Origin: a bacterium
GTDB lineage: Bacteria; Elusimicrobiota; Elusimicrobia; UBA1565
DNA length: 40,430 nucleotides
Assembly (NCBI GenBank): GCA_004322435.1
Contig: SCTT01000025.1
Span: 1 to 40,430, forward strand
Direction: 5' to 3'
Under the pieces are notes generated by a model. That model saw nothing but the letters and a program-made list of their open reading frames with translations. It was not told the DNA's origin and ran no database searches. This document shows positions 31,694 through 40,430 of the stretch, in pieces. Both the position numbers and the translations under genes were made by a program. Each line of letters begins with the position of its first letter. Positions within the stretch are counted from its first letter, which is position 1.

Positions 31694-33349
31694 CTAGAAC
31701 GTCCGGACCAAGGACACGCTCAGGTGGGAGAAGCTGCGGGGCGTGGAGATCTCGCGGCGCTCGAAGTACACCCGCAGGACGGTCCGCCCGGCGGTCCAGG
31801 AGGCGCCCAGATAGACGTTCGCCGACTCGCCGGCCGAACTCACGCGCGCGCTGGCGCGCACCGCACGCGAGGCCTCCCACTCGAGGCCCAAGGACCCCGA
31901 AGCCACCTCGAAAGGGCCGGCGAGGTTCGTGCGGCTGCGGCTGTAGGACGCCTGGACGGACGCCGCCAGGCTCGGGCGCAGCGGCCCGTCGAGGGCGGCG
32001 GTCAGGGCGTCCGACACCGTCAAGAGGCCCGCGCCGGGCACGCTCTGGCGGGCGTGCTCGTAGCGGGCGCTCGACTGGAAGCCGCGCCGGTTCGCGCCGT
32101 TGGCCGCCAGCGTCCCGCGGTGCGTGCGCTGCGCGCCCCCGCCGCCCAAGGCCTCGGAGCCGGCGGTCTCGAGCTCGGCCGTCAGGGTCCGGCCCGTGCG
32201 CGGGGTGAGCACGCCGCGCAGCGCGGCCCCGTCGCTGCGGGTGGTCTCCCCGCCCGCCCCTTCCGCCCACCCGCCGTTGACGCTCTGCTGGAAGGAGAGG
32301 CGGCGCTTGGGGAACTCCTCGCGGACGGAGAAGGCCTCCGAGAGGCTGCGGGAGCGCCCGCCGGCGTGCGACTGGCCGGCGCTTAAGGAGTTGGTCAGGC
32401 CGCCCCAGCGCCGCTCGGAGTTCGAGAGCAGGCCCAGCTGGCTCGAATCCGACTGGTCCTCGGAGAGGTTGTTGCGCGCGAAGTCGTTCGAGTAGGCGAG
32501 TTCATTGGCCCAGCCGCGAAACTTGAGCGGCAGGCTCCGGACGGCCAGATTCGCCGTCACGTCCTCCTGAAACGTGACCCCTTGGACCTTCTGGGCGAAC
32601 GCCGAAGAGCGCAGCGAGAAGAACTGCAGTCCGAGCGCCTTCTTGGTCCCCGTGCGCACCTCGAGGTCCCCGCGCCGCGTCTCGTTACGGCGCGGCCCCT
32701 GGACCCCGGTGAGGTCGGTGACCTCATTGCGGTCCCGGTCCAGGCTCACGCGCAGCGGCCCCCGCACCCAGGCCGCGCTCTCGCGGGCGTTCTCGGCGCG
32801 CTCCCGGACCGCCCCCGAAGACAGCGGGTCGTCGCGCGTCGCGAACTGGCGCACGAAGTTCACCGAGGGCAGGCCCGGCGGCGACATCCCCCCCGAGAAG
32901 CCGTAGCCGCCCGAACGGGAGACCCGGCTCGGCGCGTCGGCCGCCGCGGCCTGCTCGGTCTGGCTCCAAGAGTAGTTCGGGGCGAAGTGGGCGTAGCGCC
33001 GGAGCGCGAAGGGGAAGAGGTCCCCGCGCGCGGACCAGGACAGGGACTTCTGCGCGGGGGACTCGGTGTTCACGGCCTGGCTGACGTTGAAGCCGTCCTT
33101 AAAGGCCGCGTTCGTGCGGAGCTCCCCGGCCAGCGGATGGACGAGGGGCCCCTGGGCCGAGACGTCGTAGGCCTGCGACCACTGCGAGCGCCGGCGCGTG
33201 CCCGTCGGCGTCTGCAGCGCGATGTCGTCGAAGCTCCAGGCCAGCGACCCCGAGCGCCAGAACAGGGGCTCAGCCGCGGCGTCGGCCGCGAGGGCGAAGG
33301 CGAGGAGGCTGGCGATGGTTCGTCTCAAGGGGTCCTTCCGGCATGTCAA
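31694..33349 (-). CDS. Outer-membrane beta-barrel (porin-like) protein, last gene of the cytochrome operon
   Basis: It has a signal peptide (RRTIASLLAFALAADAAA) and an alternating beta-strand-like composition rich in S/G/R/Y/F. The C-terminus VSLVRTF ends in Phe, the OMP signature. The TTG at 33349 overlaps the cytochrome stop as TTGA. An alternative TTG at 33328 has a GGAAGGA RBS. Confidence 0.7.
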   Translation of the reverse strand: MTCRKDPLRRTIASLLAFALAADAAAEPLFWRSGSLAWSFDDIALQTPTGTRRRSQWSQAYDVSAQGPLVHPLAGELRTNAAFKDGFNVSQAVNTESPAQKSLSWSARGDLFPFALRRYAHFAPNYSWSQTEQAAAADAPSRVSRSGGYGFSGGMSPPGLPSVNFVRQFATRDDPLSSGAVRERAENARESAAWVRGPLRVSLDRDRNEVTDLTGVQGPRRNETRRGDLEVRTGTKKALGLQFFSLRSSAFAQKVQGVTFQEDVTANLAVRSLPLKFRGWANELAYSNDFARNNLSEDQSDSSQLGLLSNSERRWGGLTNSLSAGQSHAGGRSRSLSEAFSVREEFPKRRLSFQQSVNGGWAEGAGGETTRSDGAALRGVLTPRTGRTLTAELETAGSEALGGGGAQRTHRGTLAANGANRRGFQSSARYEHARQSVPGAGLLTVSDALTAALDGPLRPSLAASVQASYSRSRTNLAGPFEVASGSLGLEWEASRAVRASARVSSAGESANVYLGASWTAGRTVLRVYFERREISTPRSFSHLSVSLVRTF

Positions 33350-35115
33350 TGGCAGCCCGCGGTCGTCGAGCAGCTGGCTCGGGCATAGGCCCCGGGGGCC
33401 GGCGTCCAAAGGGTGAGCCCCTCGGCGGTGCCGCGATAGGCGACGGGGTCCGTCGTGGTGACGATGAGCCGGGCGCGGGTGAACCCGTGCGGGATTTTGG
33501 CATGGCAGCTCATGCAGCCGACCCCGCGCCCCGTATGGCTCTTGTGGTAGTTCTTCGACCCGCTCGAGAAGGCCGTCGCGCTCGCGCCCTGCGTCGCCGC
33601 GGCGGAATAGGCCGACTCGGCGTGGCAGCGGAAGCACAGGTGGCCGGCCGAGTTGCCGGACGTGCCGGTCTGCGCCGTCCACTGGCCGCGCAGGACCCGC
33701 GCGTTCGCGGCCCCGTGCACCCCGCGCGGGTCGGCGTCGGACTCGGAGCCGTGGCAGTCGGAGCAGGTCATCACGCTCTGCGAGGTCCACGGCGAGACGT
33801 AGGCCGACGCGGCGGGCGGCGCCGTGCGGGCCTTGCTCGCCGCGCCCGGGACGCCGACGTTGTGGTACGAGGGGTTGGCCGGGTTGAACTCGATGGCCTG
33901 GTCGGTGGCGCCCGTCGGCGGGGTGTTCGAATAGGCGTAGGAGGAATGGCACTTGAAGCAGAGCTGGTACTCCTTGAAGCTCGTCGTGTTGGTGAAGGGC
34001 TGGCGCGTGTAAGAGCTGGGCGCCGTGAACGGCGTGCCCCCGTAGCTGGGCTCGGCCCCCCACTGGCCGAGCAGGACCTGCCCGACGGCGTTCGAGCCGA
34101 CGGCGTGGGTGCCGGTCTTGGCCTGGTGCGGGTTATGGCAGTCCCAGCACTCGGCGTGCCGGGCGCCGTTGCCGAGGTTCGAGGCGTCGGTCTCGGGGTT
34201 CTTGTGGAGGCCGCTCTTCGATTCGGTGGGATGCTTGTAGGCCTTCGCGAAGGCCGCCTTGACGTTCTTCGCGCCGGTGAGCGGCGGGGAGCCGTGGCAG
34301 CCGTAGCAGGTGGCCTCCTCGGCGCCGCGCAGGATGTAGGCCTGGGCCGGGTTCGCCCCGTGCGTCTGGTGGCAGCTCCGGCAGGAGTACTCGCCCACCG
34401 TGGTCGCCGCGCCGCCGGGCGGCGTATAGGCTTTGTTGCTCGTCGCGTGAGCGCTGGCCGTCCACCCGGTCTTCTGGTGGCAGGTGGTGCACAGAGCCGC
34501 GTTCGCGTTGGACTTGACCAGGAACTTCCCGTTCGCGTTGTCGTGCGGGTCGTGGCAGGAGGTGCATTCGACGCGGTTCGTCTCGCCGTACACGCGCACC
34601 TTGTCGCCGGCGGGCGGCAGGACGATCTCGGGGTTGGTGCCCGGCTGGGTGGGCGGGCCGGCGCCGGGCTTCACGTCATAGAGCACCGGGTGGTCGTTCG
34701 AGAGGTCCTTGCCGATGACGGCGGAGGCCGACAGGCTCCCCTGCACGGCGATGGGGGAGGGCAGGTTGTAGACCGCGCCCAGCGCGGTGAGGCCGTCGTG
34801 GCAGGACAGGCACAGCTTCGAGCGGCTGCCCTGCAGGTCCGTCATCGTCGGGGCCGCCATGCCGAGGTAGTTGTTGAGATAGTTCGAGGAGTAGAAGGTG
34901 AAGGTCTCCGCCGAGTCGGCGCGGCCCCAGAGGCTCTGGACGCGCGCGGGCTGGTGGACCGCGTGGCAGAACACGCAGGAGCCCTTCTCGCTGACGGCCC
35001 GGGGGCCGGTGGTGGCGCTGTCGGCGGAGAGGTCGTGCTTTGAGTCGATGACCGAGAGGGCCCCGGCCGGCGGGACGAGGAGGACGCAGAGGGCGAGGGC
35101 GGCGGCGCGTTTCAT
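33346..35115 (-). CDS. Secreted multiheme cytochrome c (11 CxxCH motifs plus a terminal CX5CH)
   Basis: The ATG at 35115 (MKRAAALALCVLLVPPAGA) gives a signal peptide. The CxxCH motifs are CVFCH, CLSCH, CTSCH, CTTCH, CRSCH, CYGCH, CWDCH, CFKCH, CSDCH, CFRCH and CMSCH. The protein ends in CSTTAGCH. The start overlaps the NHL gene stop as ATGA. Confidence 0.88.
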   Translation of the reverse strand: MKRAAALALCVLLVPPAGALSVIDSKHDLSADSATTGPRAVSEKGSCVFCHAVHQPARVQSLWGRADSAETFTFYSSNYLNNYLGMAAPTMTDLQGSRSKLCLSCHDGLTALGAVYNLPSPIAVQGSLSASAVIGKDLSNDHPVLYDVKPGAGPPTQPGTNPEIVLPPAGDKVRVYGETNRVECTSCHDPHDNANGKFLVKSNANAALCTTCHQKTGWTASAHATSNKAYTPPGGAATTVGEYSCRSCHQTHGANPAQAYILRGAEEATCYGCHGSPPLTGAKNVKAAFAKAYKHPTESKSGLHKNPETDASNLGNGARHAECWDCHNPHQAKTGTHAVGSNAVGQVLLGQWGAEPSYGGTPFTAPSSYTRQPFTNTTSFKEYQLCFKCHSSYAYSNTPPTGATDQAIEFNPANPSYHNVGVPGAASKARTAPPAASAYVSPWTSQSVMTCSDCHGSESDADPRGVHGAANARVLRGQWTAQTGTSGNSAGHLCFRCHAESAYSAAATQGASATAFSSGSKNYHKSHTGRGVGCMSCHAKIPHGFTRARLIVTTTDPVAYRGTAEGLTLWTPAPGAYARASCSTTAGCH

Positions 35116-36107
35116 GGCACGGGCTCCTTCAGGTACTGGAATATCTGGACGCGGGCGTTGTGGGTGTCGGCGACGAGGAGGCGGTCGGCGGCGTCGACGA
35201 AGGCCCCGCCGGGGAGGTTGAACTCTCCGGGGCCTCCCCCGGCGCGGCCGACGAAGAGCAGCAGCCCGCCGGCGCCGTCGAAGACCTGGAGGGCCTCGAA
35301 GGCCCCGTCGACGAGGTAGGCGTGCCCGTCCGAGTCGAAGGCCAGGCCGCGCGGCCGGGCCAGGTAGCCGGGGCGGTTGCCGGACTCGCCGAAGGAGGCG
35401 ACCGGCCGGCCGTCTGAGTCGAAGGCTTGGACCCGGAAGTTCCCCGAGTCGCACACCCACAGGCGCCCACGGCCGGCCTCGTACCACAGGTAGGTCGGGA
35501 AGTTGAACTCGCCGGGCCCGCGGCCGCGGCGCCCGAAGGAGGCCAGGTAGACGCCCGAGAGGTCGTAGAGGGAGACGCGGTGGCCCGCGGCGTCGGCGAC
35601 ATAGAGCCGTCCGCCGCCCAGGGCCAGCCCCACGGGCCGGCCCAGCCCGGCCGGGTCGCCGCGCAGCTCGCCCGTCACACGGCCGGCCGGGTCGAGGATG
35701 AGGACCTTGGCCGACCCCGAGTCGGCCACGAAGAGGCGCCCGTCCTCGGCCGCCGCCACCGCCACGGGGCTCGTCAGCGGGGTCCCGTCGCTCGGCAGCC
35801 AGCGCCCCCGCCCGCTCGCCTCGTCGTAGCGGAAGACCCCCCGGGCCCCGGGGTCGGCGACCCAGACGGTGCCGGCCCGCGCGGCGAGGCCGGTGGGCTG
35901 CACCAGCCCGCCCGGGACGCGCGCGCCCGGGGTCGGGTCGTCGACGCCCAAGAGCGTCCGGGCGAGCCGCCCCCAGCGCCCGGCGGCGGCGGCCTGCCGC
36001 GGGCCGGCGAACTCTCCCACGAAGTGCAGCCGCGCGGGCTGCGGGGCCGCCGGCCAGTCGAGGGCGGCGGCGGGGACGAGCGCCAAAAGGAGGGCGAGGG
36101 CCTTCAC
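35112..36107 (-). CDS. Secreted NHL-repeat beta-propeller protein (paralog 2)
   Basis: The GTG at 36107 (VKALALLLALVPAAA) gives a signal peptide. Repeated NHL-type blades are present (GLAARAGTVWVADPGARGVFRY, RLFVADSGSAKVLILD, GRLYVADAAGHRVSLYD, RLWVCDSGNFRVQAFD, HAYLVDGAFEALQVFD, RLLVADTHNARVQIFQY). It is close to 37394..38452 over the C-terminal blades. Confidence 0.85.
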   Translation of the reverse strand: MKALALLLALVPAAALDWPAAPQPARLHFVGEFAGPRQAAAAGRWGRLARTLLGVDDPTPGARVPGGLVQPTGLAARAGTVWVADPGARGVFRYDEASGRGRWLPSDGTPLTSPVAVAAAEDGRLFVADSGSAKVLILDPAGRVTGELRGDPAGLGRPVGLALGGGRLYVADAAGHRVSLYDLSGVYLASFGRRGRGPGEFNFPTYLWYEAGRGRLWVCDSGNFRVQAFDSDGRPVASFGESGNRPGYLARPRGLAFDSDGHAYLVDGAFEALQVFDGAGGLLLFVGRAGGGPGEFNLPGGAFVDAADRLLVADTHNARVQIFQYLKEPVP

Positions 36108-36481
36108 GGCTCCTCCATGAGGGCCGGGCCGAGGACCGGGTCGGCCAGGGCCTGGCGCAGCGCGCGGCGCAGGCGCCAGGCGGTGGCGATCTTGACCCGC
36201 AGGCGCTGCGAGAGTTCGGCGCAGGAAGGCTCCCCGTCGAGCATCAGGCGGGCGGCCCGGTGCCAGGCGGCGAGCGGCAGATGGGTCCGCGCGAGCGGCG
36301 TGCCGGTGAGGTCGTTGAAGGCCCGGCCGCAGGCCAGGCAGCGGAGCTTGCGCCGACCCGACGCGTCGGCGTTCATGAACAGCCCGCAGCGCGGGCTCGC
36401 GCAGCGCGGGCAGCGCAGCCCCTCGGGCCAGCGCGCCCGGCGCAGGCGCGCGAGGAACCGCTCTTCGAAGCCTTCGTCCAC
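36104..36481 (-). CDS. Stand-alone IS1595-type transposase N-terminal module (Zn-ribbon plus HTH), no DDE domain; candidate DNA-binding regulator
   Basis: The pattern FLARLRRARWPEGLRCPRCASPR...LRCLACGRAFNDLTGTPLARTHLPLAAWHRAA-LM...ELSQRLRVKIATAWRLRRAL matches the conserved N-terminus of IS1595-family transposases: RWPNG-x-CPxCG...CxxC...FS-x-TAGT...T...PL..W, then an HTH and YKTAW. The GTG at 36481 has a GGAGG RBS 6 nt upstream. The track start at 36508 is TTG. The stop overlaps the NHL start as GTGA. Confidence 0.7.
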   Translation of the reverse strand: MDEGFEERFLARLRRARWPEGLRCPRCASPRCGLFMNADASGRRKLRCLACGRAFNDLTGTPLARTHLPLAAWHRAARLMLDGEPSCAELSQRLRVKIATAWRLRRALRQALADPVLGPALMEEP

Positions 36482-36562
36482 GGCCAACCTCCGGGGGTAC
36501 AACCTCAAACGGAACGTCGCGGGCCGAAAAGACCCCGGTCTCCCGGGGTCTCTCCTTACGGA

Positions 36563-37204
36563 TTACCGGTCGTGGCAGGCCAAGCAGCGGTCGCCCGAGC
36601 GGAGGATCTTGGAGGACGCCTCGCTCGAGTGCATCGAGTGGCAGCTCGTGCAGCCGACGACCCCGCCGGTCTCCGTCTTGACCTTGGCGGCGGCGCTGGC
36701 CGGGGCGCCGGGGTAGTCCGTGCGCAGCGCGGCGAACCAGCCTTCCGTGCCGAACGGGACCACGACGCCGACCGGGTGCTTCCCGTGCAGGTCGCGCCCG
36801 AAGTTCTTGGTGTTGGCGGCCATCACGACCGACCCGCCGAGCGTCGTCTGCCCGTCGTGGCAGGACAAGCAGCGGCCGGAGTTGGTCTTCACGAAGTCCG
36901 CCGCCGAGAGGAAGCGGGTGTCGCCCGCGCCCAGCGTCATGCCGACGCTCGGATTGGCGGCGTCGTAGACGACCCAGCCGGTCGTCGTCGGAGCGCTGCG
37001 TTTCCAGATCTGCACCACGTCCGCGGCCTTGTGGGCCGAGTGACACATGCCGCAGGACCCGCCGTACGTGTAGGTGTACGTGCTCGTCCCGTTGAAATAT
37101 CCCGTGCTGAAGTCGTGCTTCGTCCCCGCGACCTTGAGTCCCTCGGCCCGAACCGGGGCGCCGAAGAGGGTCACGAGGAAGAGTCCGGCGATGAGTGCTT
37201 TCAT
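36563..37204 (-). CDS. Secreted tetraheme cytochrome c
   Basis: The signal peptide is MKALIAGLFLVTLFGAPVRA. The CxxCH motifs are CGMCH, CLSCH, CTSCH and CLACH. The N-terminal module KHDFS...CGMCHSAH parallels KHDLS...CVFCHAVH in the 11-heme protein. A GAGGAGAG RBS is present. Confidence 0.88.
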   Translation of the reverse strand: MKALIAGLFLVTLFGAPVRAEGLKVAGTKHDFSTGYFNGTSTYTYTYGGSCGMCHSAHKAADVVQIWKRSAPTTTGWVVYDAANPSVGMTLGAGDTRFLSAADFVKTNSGRCLSCHDGQTTLGGSVVMAANTKNFGRDLHGKHPVGVVVPFGTEGWFAALRTDYPGAPASAAAKVKTETGGVVGCTSCHSMHSSEASSKILRSGDRCLACHDR

Positions 37205-37252: not shown

Positions 37253-37272
37253 ATGGCAACGATGGTTCCGGA
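37253..37272 (-). promoter_or_regulatory. Candidate sigma-54 (-24/-12) promoter upstream of the tetraheme cytochrome operon
   Basis: The minus strand reads CCGGAACCATCGTTGCCA. The GG and GC are at the canonical spacing (GG-N10-GC) and the -12 element is TTGC. It matches the consensus TGGCAC-N5-TTGCW at GG, A, C and TTGC. It lies about 50 nt upstream of the ATG at 37204. Confidence 0.45.
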
Positions 37273-37393: not shown

Positions 37394-38452
37394 TTACTTG
37401 TAGGCCGTCTCCGGGACCTTGATGTATTGGAAGACCTGCAGGCGCGCGTTGCCGGCGTCCACCAGGTAGATCCGGTCCGCGGCGTCGATGAAGAGCCCGG
37501 CCGGCAGGCTCAGCTCGCCGTCGCGGGCGCCGGGAGCGGCGAAGTAGAGCAGCAGCTTGCCCTGGCCGTTGAAGATCTGGACGCGGTTGAACACCGCGTC
37601 CACCACGTAGACGTTCCCGTCCGAGTCCGTGGCCACCCCGCGCGGCCGGGCCATGTAGCCCGGACGGTCGCCGTTCTCGCCGAAGCCGAACTTGATCTTC
37701 CCGTCGGGCGAGAAGATGTGGATGCGGCCCGCCACCGGGTCGGACTCGTAGATGGAGCCCTCCTTGTCCACCCAGAGGTTGGCCGTCATCCCCAGCGCCG
37801 CCTCGTCCTTGCCCCCGCGCAGGAACTCGCGCAGGAATTTTCCCTCGGGCGAGAGCGCCACCACGCTGCGCCGCCCGGCGTCGAGGACGAGGACCTCGCC
37901 CTTGGGCGACCAGGCCGCCGCCGCGGGGCGCCCGAAGGTCCCCTCGCCCCCCAGCGCCTCCGTCTTCCAGCGGAATTTGCGGTCGGGGCCGAAGCACTTG
38001 AGCGACGCGTCGCCGGAATCGGCGACGTAGAGGTTGCCGGCCGGGTCGGAGGCGGCGCCGGAGGGGCTGACCAACGCCCCGGCACCCTCCCCCGTGAACT
38101 TCTCATCGGTGCGCGCCGACAGGTCCAGCACGTGCACGGCCCCCTGGGCGGTGTCCGGCAGCAGCACGCGCCCGCGGGCGTCGACCCAGACGCCGTAGGG
38201 GCGGTCGAAGAGCGCCGCCGACGAGTCCCCGCCCAGCACGGCGTCGGAGAGCTTCGACAGGAACCCGCGCTTGCGGCCGCGCAGGTCGTCGATGCTGCGG
38301 ACGGTGCGCACCCAGCGGATGCGCGTCGGCTCGGGCGGCGTGGGGAACTCGAGCTGGGGGGCCTTGGGCTCCTCGGCGGGCTTGGCGGCGACGGCGGCCC
38401 CGGCGCGGACCGCGGACAAGGACAGCAGGACGGCGAGCAGTGGAGTCTTCAT
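37394..38452 (-). CDS. Secreted NHL-repeat beta-propeller protein (paralog 1)
   Basis: The ATG at 38452 (MKTPLLAVLLSLSAVRAGAA) gives a signal peptide. NHL blades are present (NLYVADSGDASLKCF, EVLVLDAGRRSVVAL, SIYESDPVAGRIHIF, NVYVVDAVFNRVQIF, RIYLVDAGNARLQVFQY). The start overlaps the upstream stop as ATGA. Confidence 0.85.
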   Translation of the reverse strand: MKTPLLAVLLSLSAVRAGAAVAAKPAEEPKAPQLEFPTPPEPTRIRWVRTVRSIDDLRGRKRGFLSKLSDAVLGGDSSAALFDRPYGVWVDARGRVLLPDTAQGAVHVLDLSARTDEKFTGEGAGALVSPSGAASDPAGNLYVADSGDASLKCFGPDRKFRWKTEALGGEGTFGRPAAAAWSPKGEVLVLDAGRRSVVALSPEGKFLREFLRGGKDEAALGMTANLWVDKEGSIYESDPVAGRIHIFSPDGKIKFGFGENGDRPGYMARPRGVATDSDGNVYVVDAVFNRVQIFNGQGKLLLYFAAPGARDGELSLPAGLFIDAADRIYLVDAGNARLQVFQYIKVPETAYK

Positions 38453-40430
38453 TTTTCGTGGCAGACCTCGCAGTGTCCGGGCTCGAAGGTGAGGAGCTTG
38501 GGTTTTGCGCCCGCGTGCGGGTCGTGGCATGAGGCGCAGTCGAAGGGCTTGTCCTTGCGCCGCGGGTCGGCCTTGCCCTCCTTGGACGTGGAGTGCCCCG
38601 CCACGGGGTGGTTGTTCTTGAGGCCGACCTCGTGGCAGGCGAAGCAGACGCCGTCCAAGGCGTCCTTCATCAGCGCCGGGCGGCGCCGGGCGTGGGGGTC
38701 GTGGCAGGCCACGCAGTCGCCGCCGGCGAAGGGCGCGTGCACGACGGCGAGCTCTCCCTTCTTGCGGAAGTCGGAGTGGCAGGTGAAGCAGGTCTTCTCG
38801 GGGGTCTCCTTGAGGGCGGCCTTGGCGTCGGCGCCCGTCGGCGCGTGGCACATCTCGCAGGAGCGCGAGCCGAAGGGCACATGCGGCTTGCCGCCGGCGA
38901 TGAGCTTAGGCTGCTCGCCCGCGTGCGGGTCATGGCAGGCCAGGCAGGAGCCCGCGAACTCGGACACGCCGAAGTGGGCCTTCTTGAGCGGCTCGTCGGC
39001 CGGGGTGTGGCAGTTGAGGCACAGCTCCTTGGCGGGCTGGAGCAGCAGGTGCGGCTCCTTAGAGGCGTGGGGCTGATGGCAGGTCGCGCAGTCCCCGTCT
39101 ACGAACGGCGAGTGGAGGACCGGCTTCTTGAGGCCGGCTTCCCGGGCCGGATGGCAGGACAGGCACAGCGGCTTGTACTCCTTAAGGAGCTTCTTGGGGT
39201 CTTGGGGGTCCGCGTGGCAGGCGGCGCAGCGCCCCTCGGCCACCGGCTTGTGCGCGCCCTCGGCCCGCGTCAGCTCCGCCGCCTTCTCCTTGTGGGCCGC
39301 GAAAAAGGCGTCCCCGTCGCCGGCCTCCGCCTTCTTGGCCGGGCCGAACCAGCCGGCCCCGGCCCCGCCCGCCGACAGCGCGAGGAGCAGCGCCGCGGCG
39401 GCGGCCTTGATGCCGAACTTCTCGAGGCGCCGGCGCAGCGCGTCGCGCCCGATGCCAAGGACCTGGGCCGCCTTCTGGTGGTTGCCGTTCGCGCGCGACA
39501 GGGCTTCTTTGACCATGGCCTTCTCCATCTCCTCGAGGTTGAGGCCGCCCTCCGGGGCGGCCGGGGCCGGAGCGGCGGGAGCCCGCTGCGGGCGGAGCTC
39601 GGTCTCCCCCAAGATCAGCATGCGCTCGAGGGTGTTGCGCAGCTCGCGGACGTTGCCGGGCCAGGAGTGCTCCCGGAAGGCCGCCAACGTCTCCTCGCTG
39701 AACGCCGGACGCGGCCGGCCCAGCTCGCGGCACAGGCGGCCCAAGATGAGGTCGGCCAGGGGCCGGATGTCCTCGCGCCGCTCCCGCAACGGGGCCAGCC
39801 GGATGGTGAGGACGTTGATGCGGTAGTAGAGGTCGGTGCGGAAGCGCCCCTCGGCCACGGCCTTCTCCAGGTCCTCGTTGGTGGCGGCCAGCACGCGCAC
39901 GTCCACCACGACGTCCTCGGTCCCCCCCACGCGCATGAAGGTCTTGTCCTCGAGCACCCGCAGCACCTTGGCCTGCAGGCCCTGCGGCATGTGGCCGATC
40001 TCGTTTAAGAACACCGTGCCGCCGTCGGCCGACTCGAAGATGCCCTTCTTGCGGGCCAGCGCGCCGGTGAAGGCCCCTTTCTCGTAGCCGAAGAGCTCGC
40101 TTTCGAGGAGATGCTCCGGGATGGCCGTGGCGTTGACCTCGAGGAGGGGCTGGTGCGCCCGCGCGCTCTCGTAGTGGATGGCCCGGGCCAGGCGGTCCTT
40201 GCCGCAGCCGGACTCCCCGAGGATGAGGACGTTGCCCTGCGGGCTCGCGGCGATCTTGCGCGCCATCCCGAGGGCCTCCCGCATCGAGGGGCTCTCGCAG
40301 ACGATGGAGTCGAAGTTGTACTTGTCGCGCCGCTTGCGATGCGTCTCGGCCAGGCGGGTGCGCAGCTGGGCGGTCTCGAGGACGCGCTCCAAGGTGATCT
40401 TGAGGCCGCCAAGCTGCAAGGGCTTCGAGA
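38449..40430 (-). CDS. NtrC-type sigma-54 enhancer-binding protein fused in frame to a TM/signal-anchor segment and an 11-heme cytochrome c domain (5'-truncated at the window edge)
   Basis: The frame is open to base 40430. The first residues, ..SKPLQLGGLKITLERVLE, look like the end of a receiver domain (KP). The AAA+ sigma-54 interaction domain has GESGCGKD, ESELFGYEKGAFTGA, VRVLAATN and NVRELRN. A Fis-type HTH follows (HQKAAQVLGIGRDALRRRLEKFGI). With no stop, the frame then runs into the hydrophobic AAAAALLLALSAGGAGAGWF (nt 39346-39405). Eleven CxxCH motifs follow (CAACH, CLSCH, CATCH, CLNCH, CLACH, CEMCH, CFTCH, CVACH, CFACH, CASCH, CEVCH) in c7/c3-like H-x-PF-x-G-x-C-x-x-CH-x-PH repeats. 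Confidence 0.75.
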   Translation of the reverse strand, partial: SKPLQLGGLKITLERVLETAQLRTRLAETHRKRRDKYNFDSIVCESPSMREALGMARKIAASPQGNVLILGESGCGKDRLARAIHYESARAHQPLLEVNATAIPEHLLESELFGYEKGAFTGALARKKGIFESADGGTVFLNEIGHMPQGLQAKVLRVLEDKTFMRVGGTEDVVVDVRVLAATNEDLEKAVAEGRFRTDLYYRINVLTIRLAPLRERREDIRPLADLILGRLCRELGRPRPAFSEETLAAFREHSWPGNVRELRNTLERMLILGETELRPQRAPAAPAPAAPEGGLNLEEMEKAMVKEALSRANGNHQKAAQVLGIGRDALRRRLEKFGIKAAAAALLLALSAGGAGAGWFGPAKKAEAGDGDAFFAAHKEKAAELTRAEGAHKPVAEGRCAACHADPQDPKKLLKEYKPLCLSCHPAREAGLKKPVLHSPFVDGDCATCHQPHASKEPHLLLQPAKELCLNCHTPADEPLKKAHFGVSEFAGSCLACHDPHAGEQPKLIAGGKPHVPFGSRSCEMCHAPTGADAKAALKETPEKTCFTCHSDFRKKGELAVVHAPFAGGDCVACHDPHARRRPALMKDALDGVCFACHEVGLKNNHPVAGHSTSKEGKADPRRKDKPFDCASCHDPHAGAKPKLLTFEPGHCEVCHEK

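Follow-up and report, generated by a model that had tools for sequence, protein, structure and literature searches.

The window analyzed here is a complete contig of 40,430 bases (SCTT01000025.1) from a bacterium of the Elusimicrobia. At its end lies a partial minus-strand gene in which an NtrC-type sigma-54 activator continues, in one frame and without a stop, into a signal-peptide-like segment and an 11-heme c-type cytochrome. This fusion of activator and cytochrome is genuine and evolutionarily conserved. We think it probable, while keeping considerable doubt, that the gene encodes a precursor of two proteins with an internal Sec signal peptide, in which the activator would be controlled by a neighboring histidine kinase.

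A conserved fusion of activator and cytochrome

Translation of the minus strand between positions 40428 and 38452 gave 659 amino acids without a stop, followed by a stop codon at positions 38449 to 38451 (the window protein's cluster entry is P0277). An earlier reading made from the letters alone (the sequence-only reading) had reported this frame as uninterrupted without naming its strand, and the translation confirms it on the minus strand. Because the contig ends there, the 5′ end of the gene, which encodes the receiver, is missing. Third-position GC content stayed between 0.87 and 1.00 in the fused frame along the entire open reading frame. Given this continuity, and because both halves match Pfam families in one frame (Table 1), a hidden frameshift or indel was rejected.

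Within the AAA+ domain, a Walker A motif (GESGCGKD) and an EKGAFTGA loop were read from the translation. The Walker B motif is TVFLNEIG (approximately 39990 to 40010, minus strand; fragment residues 140 to 147), with Asn-Glu where the canonical form is hhhhDE; this variant was present in 55 of the 276 related activators examined, fused and unfused alike. The sequence-only reading had placed a receiver beyond the end of the window, and the relatives bear this out: the closest full-length relative (P0278; 761 amino acids, 87% identical) carries a receiver domain (PF00072), as do 24 other fused proteins, with D10, D11, D54, T82, and K104 invariant across the 25 aligned members. By its GAFTGA loop, its Walker A motif, the receiver of its relatives, and its helix-turn-helix (HTH) domain, the activator half is classed as an NtrC-type response regulator, Walker B excepted. 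After ...LRRRLEKFG, the chain runs into IKAAAAALLLALSAGGAGA and on to GWFGPAKK, with a predicted signal-peptidase site between AGA and G (39355 to 39363, minus strand). Pfam placed six Paired_CXXCH_1 stretches across the last ~300 residues, and a count on the translation gave 11 CxxCH motifs beyond the HTH, the number that the sequence-only reading had reported. The stop of the fused gene overlaps the start of an NHL-repeat gene by 4 bases (ATGA).

The same junction recurred among related genomes. A protein search with the HTH-plus-cytochrome part as the query returned two relatives, ~55% identical, in which it is preserved. In a scan of one genome per species, 12 Elusimicrobia genomes (contigs up to 117 kb) had a single stop-free frame from the HTH to the CxxCH motifs, and all 11 motifs were kept wherever the contig does not end earlier. 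Searching with the full fragment gave ~33 clusters of 746 to 779 amino acids with the domains Response_reg, Sigma54_activat, AAA_lid_14, HTH_8, and Paired_CXXCH_1, drawn from NCBI, JGI, ENA, and Logan assemblies. A 770-amino-acid protein that aligned with the window fragment over its full length came from a scan of cluster representatives. The two halves of the fused protein diverge in step (~54% identity to P0002 across the junction), and the fused junction also lies within long contigs (up to 191 kb) from varied projects and assemblers. Because dozens of independent assemblies, 55 to 87% identical, keep the junction, the fusion is real and goes beyond the chance long open reading frames of a ~70% GC genome.

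Unfused relatives of both halves were also found. Those of the activator end 0 to 9 residues past KFG or KYG (...KFGLK, ...KFGLR, ...KYGL); the fusion therefore starts exactly at the activator's natural C terminus, with no spacer. Stand-alone orthologues of the cytochrome are 313 to 327 amino acids long and ~53% identical, each with an ordinary N-terminal signal peptide. The sequence-only reading had proposed comparing homologues of the same domain order with split ones. Beside the 12 genomes and ~33 clusters in which the gene is fused, a split locus was seen (L026:4699-7661) with the same gene order and with activator and cytochrome as separate genes 540 nucleotides apart; its activator ends ...VEKYGL, and its cytochrome has its own methionine and signal peptide. 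The 540-nucleotide gap contains, in a different frame, a fragment resembling a spermidine-synthase-type methyltransferase. Other stand-alone orthologues sit after a NapC/NirT-type cytochrome, and at one locus (L005:6517-8951) the stand-alone cytochrome gene comes straight after that of a heme-motif kinase, overlapping it by 1 base and without an intervening activator gene. In rough neighbor-joining trees, the unfused L026, P0003, and P0005 fell inside the fused cytochrome clade and the L026 activator fell outside the fused activator clade; these trees are too crude to separate fission from repeated fusion.

A few sequences differ at or near the junction. In P0279 (746 amino acids, 84% identical to the window protein), exactly the hydrophobic segment is gone, and EKFG runs directly into GAGWFG. 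Its cytochrome part would be without an export signal, and the gap could be either a natural deletion or a GC-rich repeat collapsed in assembly. The unfused close relative P0307 (469 amino acids, 82% identical to the activator part) loses its similarity right past ...EKFGIKAA; 20 unrelated residues follow before the stop, a pattern suggestive of rearrangement at this point. In P0308 (802 amino acids, from a Logan contig of 3247 bases), the activator is in frame with the signal peptide of the NHL protein, with no cytochrome between them. Three contigs break independently within the AAA+ region (the window at 40430 and both L001 and L002 at their starts), likely because paralogous sigma-54 activators confuse assemblers.

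A second fused family emerged from the cluster-representative scan, in which proteins of ~800 to 830 amino acids, 39% identical, had the same layout as the Elusimicrobia fusion. At least 55 clusters belong to this family, and those that carry a name are from Gemmatimonadales (P0194 and P0393-P0447; L087:6001-8490; L088:6001-9381). Its members are composed of a receiver, an AAA+ domain, an HTH, a signal peptide ending ...PARA before QQ, 11 CxxCH motifs, and, at the C terminus, a real membrane helix; an AxA motif was present in 50 of 55. Forms of 1126 to 1158 amino acids run on into a cytochrome b domain and so form a triple fusion of regulator, multiheme cytochrome, and cytochrome b. The surrounding gene order is kinase, fused gene, cytochrome b, and further cytochromes, and these kinases are without a periplasmic CxxCH motif. 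Between Gemmatimonadales and Elusimicrobia, the cytochrome halves have no detectable homology beyond the heme motifs. On this basis, a single fused ancestor shared by both phyla was rejected, and the fusion arose at least twice.

The junction segment and the proposed fate of the precursor

The segment that follows the HTH lined up, column by column, with the signal peptides at the N termini of the stand-alone orthologues, and in that alignment the basic end of the HTH stands in place of the n-region. Across 32 fused proteins, the hydrophobic core of the junction is 11 to 15 residues long, within an uncharged run of 11 to 24 residues. AxA was found in 31 of these proteins, 17 to 22 residues past the HTH and mostly at 17 to 20, and is followed by a conserved G/Q-(G/D)-W/L/F-F, the same as in the stand-alone proteins. 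Substitutions between the junctions of the window and L009 (81% identical) replace hydrophobic residues with hydrophobic residues, as expected for a signal peptide. The hydrophobic segment follows the HTH without an intervening linker or signaling module. We also estimated membrane insertion energy as a simple 19-residue sum over approximate values of a membrane-insertion scale. On this measure, the window junction scored ~+2.5 kcal/mol, and the fused junctions of Elusimicrobia had a median of +3.0 kcal/mol, compared to a median of +2.1 kcal/mol for the signal peptides of stand-alone orthologues and −4.8 to +1.0 kcal/mol for the transmembrane helices of kinases in the same loci. The segment thus has the n-region, short h-region, AxA c-region, and position directly before a periplasmic domain that define an internal signal peptide of the FbcH type, and by its approximate insertion energy it falls short of a stable single transmembrane helix such as that of ToxR. 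Taken together, the junction looks like a cleavable Sec signal peptide rather than a stable anchor. Export by the Tat pathway, raised by the RRR run, was set aside as improbable: the sequence is no match to RRxFLK, and multiheme c-type cytochromes mature following Sec export.

The neighborhood of the fused gene offers a candidate input and candidate targets for the activator. In 11 of 12 related loci, the gene immediately upstream encodes a HAMP-HisKA histidine kinase, and one CxxCH is conserved in the periplasmic domain of the kinase (11/12 loci), between two membrane helices and just before the second. It falls within the motif DFP..N...C.RCHG..LGY.RLV (L084:8518-9999; upstream open reading frames of L009, L010, L012-L018, L025, and L028; L026:2843-4738). 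This protein is probably a heme-c sensor kinase; a kinase is the conventional site for heme-c sensing. A strict scan of the window for TGGCAC-N5-TTGC gave chance-level matches only, and promoter-like sites emerged only when GG-N10-GC and conservation across loci were required together. Ten of the 12 related loci (among L001 and L009-L018) have a matching element 50 to 60 nucleotides ahead of the first small cytochrome gene, with GG and TTGC invariant and, in most loci, a G before TTGC (a GTTGC −12 box). Seven related loci have a second GG-N10-GC element, immediately ahead of the kinase gene. Judged by spacing and conservation, these elements may act as sigma-54 promoters.

In the two-protein reading, the ribosome would make a single activator-cytochrome precursor. 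As the hydrophobic segment emerged, the C-terminal part would be threaded through Sec and its hemes attached in the periplasm. Signal peptidase I would cut past the conserved AxA (between AGA and GWFG in the window), giving an ordinary periplasmic cytochrome like the free orthologues; the activator would keep a weakly hydrophobic C-terminal tail of ~19 residues, and any hold on the membrane would be brief or loose. The neighboring kinase would switch the activator on through its receiver, not through the hemes, and the active protein would drive transcription from promoters ahead of the kinase gene and ahead of the downstream cytochrome operon. Fusion would fix a 1:1 synthesis of activator and cytochrome and would put each new activator at the membrane beside its own kinase and its own locus.

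The sequence-only reading had instead proposed that the hemes serve as a direct redox sensor of a stably tethered activator. Direct sensing by the heme domain is not favored because the junction has the features of a cleavable signal, the receiver is intact, and a kinase with a periplasmic CxxCH lies upstream. The proposed order of HTH, membrane segment, and hemes in a single polypeptide holds for the chain as encoded; a stable anchor is not supported (approximate insertion energy ~+3 kcal/mol). The difficulty raised with it, of how an HTH next to the membrane would reach DNA, is probably eased: the activator would not be permanently held at the membrane, and the candidate sites lie ~1 to 3 kb from its own gene.

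Several points weigh against cleavage into two proteins. Cleavage, export, and heme attachment are all predicted, and the cleavage call rests on rules and an approximate hydrophobicity scale. An AlphaFold2 model of P0278 from a 25-sequence alignment had a mean predicted local distance difference test score of 60, falling below 50 at the junction and in much of the cytochrome, and was of too low quality to inform on the junction. The Asn-Glu Walker B motif means that the ATPase may behave unusually, although unfused relatives share the variant. Making regulator and electron carrier 1:1 would be odd were the cytochrome required in large amounts, and the fact that such fusions arose repeatedly and lasted in two phyla hints that the physical link has a function, one that the two-protein reading does not require. 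The fusion may have been a neutral event that persists because reversing it would require a stop, a start, and a ribosome-binding site to arise together; its independent recurrence argues mildly against pure neutrality. It is possible, though we would not expect it, that the link is itself a regulatory device, with the newly made activator bound to the Sec machinery through its own cargo and freed to assemble on DNA only by cytochrome export and signal peptidase (perhaps followed by signal-peptide peptidase), or else kept tethered and gated by the state of the heme domain. Such a device would be a new coupling of sigma-54 transcription to the assembly success or redox state of envelope electron transfer, invented at least twice (Elusimicrobia and Gemmatimonadales).

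An uncleaved signal anchor would make the protein a bitopic, membrane-tethered sigma-54 activator, with the hemes acting as a redox sensor or as a mere tether near the kinase and the locus. The succession of cytoplasmic domains, basic residues, hydrophobic stretch, and cytochrome in one open reading frame gives it a consistent in-to-out topology, and the link has been long kept and arose at least twice, with the long Gemmatimonadales forms extending into an integral-membrane cytochrome b. Moreover, the promoter-like sites lie ~1 to 3 kb from the gene, to which a cotranslationally inserted protein would be close. However, the segment is too short and too weakly hydrophobic to form a stable helix (~+3 kcal/mol versus −4.8 to +1.0 kcal/mol for real helices nearby), and the AxA and the small residues before it, neither of which a pure anchor needs, are kept in 31 of 32 fused proteins and in 50 of 55 of the second family. 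A mere 0 to 3 residues separate the recognition helix from the membrane segment, with no HAMP-like transmitter; the receiver is intact, a separate heme-motif kinase is present, and the cytochrome is orthologous to free periplasmic cytochromes. On these grounds, we judge a permanent anchor unlikely.

It is considerably less likely still that the cytochrome is translated separately from an internal start near the end of the activator, with the fused frame as incidental read-through. In-frame ATG, GTG, and TTG codons are absent from the window translation between fragment residues 306 and 395, consistent with the claim of the sequence-only reading that the cytochrome part has no start of its own near the junction; the closest such codons flank this interval, with ATG at residues 301 and 305 and GTG at residue 396. 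The idea draws on an in-frame ATG that many relatives have four codons before KFG (RRR-M-EKFGLK), from which a plausible signal peptide, MEKFGLKEAIGALL, would begin, and on the GGAG that precedes the second window ATG by six bases. Against it, the window, L009, and L016 have CTC, and L018 has CTG, in place of the methionine codon before EKFG; residues 301 and 305 are not methionine in most relatives; and the RRR-M codon lacks a Shine-Dalgarno sequence, in contrast to the clear AGGAGG sites of the downstream genes. Because there is no stop, ribosomes translating the activator must make the fused chain regardless. We rejected the RRR-M codon, the ATC of GIK, and Met301 or Met305 as conserved internal starts. 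An assembly or sequencing artifact, a chimeric contig, or a decaying pseudogene specific to one genome is the least credible account. The window, L001, and L002 do all end within the activator gene, where the assembly graph is unstable, and the close relative P0279 is without the hydrophobic segment; but the contig breaks fall in the conserved AAA+ region, away from the junction, and the junction itself lies inside contigs of up to 191 kb from differing projects and assemblers. Third-position GC is unbroken across it, and the catalytic and heme motifs are all intact.

Genes around the fused gene

Features of the fused gene and of the genes downstream of it are collected in Table 1. On the 191-kb contig (L084), the order is HAMP-HisKA kinase, fused gene, NHL protein (4-base overlap), small cytochromes, zinc-ribbon protein, second NHL protein, a cytochrome of ~620 amino acids, and a protein of ~550 amino acids without a family match; the window matches this order starting at the fused gene. 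The zinc-ribbon protein, 117 to 134 amino acids long, is kept within the cytochrome/NHL cluster elsewhere as well (L001:3334-3720, L084:15028-15381) and may be a domesticated DNA-binding protein. Pfam detected no MtrB-type porin family in the cluster; the conserved 551-amino-acid neighbor is without a Pfam match, and our suggestion that it is an outer-membrane barrel is a guess.

Table 1. Position and supporting evidence of the fused gene, its domains, and neighboring features in the window
Feature	Position	Strand	Evidence
Partial fused gene: sigma-54 activator, signal-peptide-like segment, and 11-heme cytochrome in one frame	38449..40430	-	Translation, Pfam
AAA+ sigma-54 interaction domain, Sigma54_activat PF00158	39802..40305	-	Pfam E=4e-65, residues 42-209
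AAA+ lid, AAA_lid_14 PF25601	39601..39786	-	Pfam E=7e-19, residues 215-276
Fis-type HTH, HTH_8 PF02954, ending ...LRRRLEKF	39415..39537	-	Pfam E=3e-12, residues 298-338
Signal-peptide-like junction IKAAAAALLLALSAGGAGA, 19 hydrophobic residues	39355..39411	-	Translation, alignment
Predicted mature periplasmic cytochrome, 11 CxxCH, MtrA/DmsE-like	38452..39354	-	Paired_CXXCH_1 PF09699 E=4e-50
NHL-repeat beta-propeller protein with its own signal peptide	37394..38452	-	Same neighbor in L001, L002, L084, L009-L017
Sigma-54-type promoter-like element CGGAACCATCGTTGCC, GG-N10-GC	37255..37270	-	Conservation; 50 nucleotides upstream of the 4-CxxCH cytochrome gene
Small cytochrome, 4 CxxCH, first gene of the downstream operon	36563..37204	-	Translation
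134-amino-acid protein, IS1595-type zinc ribbon, no transposase body	36104..36508	-	Pfam PF12760
Second NHL-repeat protein	35112..36107	-	
589-amino-acid cytochrome, 11 CxxCH, MtrC/MtrF-like domain matches	33346..35115	-	
~551-amino-acid protein, no Pfam match, position conserved	31694..33349	-	Counterparts of 546 and 550 amino acids in L001 and L084

Relation to known regulators and cytochromes

Enhancer-binding proteins are described as soluble cytoplasmic ATPases, and we know of none with a C-terminal Sec signal peptide and a periplasmic domain. A full-text literature search returned no paper describing an enhancer-binding protein that is membrane-anchored or carries a fused cytochrome, and public databases name the fused proteins generically, as sigma-54 regulators or as cytochromes; the domain architecture is apparently undescribed so far. 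It is the rule in a groundwater clade of Elusimicrobia and is also found in a large soil family of Gemmatimonadales. If cleaved, the precursor would supply both a regulator and a secreted enzyme from a single gene, which is rare in bacteria, and would tie the output of the regulator to export; if uncleaved, it would be the first membrane-tethered sigma-54 activator. Either outcome bears on the annotation of extracellular electron-transfer clusters in uncultured bacteria.

On the regulatory side, the closest characterized analogue of the fused activator is, by domain content and setting, BccR of Geobacter sulfurreducens (GSU0598), which is required for induction of cbcBA (bioRxiv 10.1101/2021.04.15.440034). 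BccR and GSU0596, which is encoded within the cbcBA operon, share with the activator a receiver, a sigma-54 AAA+ domain, and a Fis-type HTH, and they lie beside or inside a respiratory multiheme cytochrome operon with a −24/−12 promoter (a candidate promoter here). The Geobacter proteins are separate and cytoplasmic, whereas the activator here runs stop-free into the first cytochrome of the operon and has an Asn-Glu Walker B motif. Periplasmic heme-c sensor domains of kinases and chemoreceptors, such as the Geobacter GSU0582/GSU0935 type, resemble the upstream kinase, with its one CxxCH, and not the fused domain, which is a full 11-heme electron-transfer module with no transmitter and differs in this from a single-heme sensor.

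The cytochrome half resembles the periplasmic decahemes MtrA and DmsE in its close CxxCH pairs, its length of ~300 amino acids, and its MtrC/MtrF-like neighbors. Its best sequence match among solved structures was chain A of 6r2q (E=2e-14), which we interpret as MtrA from the Shewanella Mtr complex despite its different label in the file. It differs in having 11 hemes rather than 10, in its NHL-repeat propeller partners, in the absence of a recognizable MtrB-type porin, and in its signal peptide, which is internal and lies behind a cytoplasmic protein of ~440 amino acids.

With ToxR and CadC, the fused protein shares the order of a cytoplasmic DNA-binding domain, one hydrophobic segment, and a periplasmic domain. 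Those regulators have a stable transmembrane helix, a linker, and a winged-helix domain and are without an ATPase; the segment here, in contrast, scores as a cleavable signal peptide, and the activator must form an AAA+ ring. The closest mechanistic precedent for two proteins arising from one gene by way of an internal signal peptide would be fbcH of Bradyrhizobium japonicum: its single precursor reportedly comprises cytochromes b and c1, which are separated at such a peptide following export (Thony-Meyer et al., 1991). Both halves of FbcH are subunits of a single membrane complex. In the fused gene described here, the upstream half is instead a soluble DNA-binding ATPase with no electron-transfer role, joined through a predicted cleavage site to an exported electron carrier.

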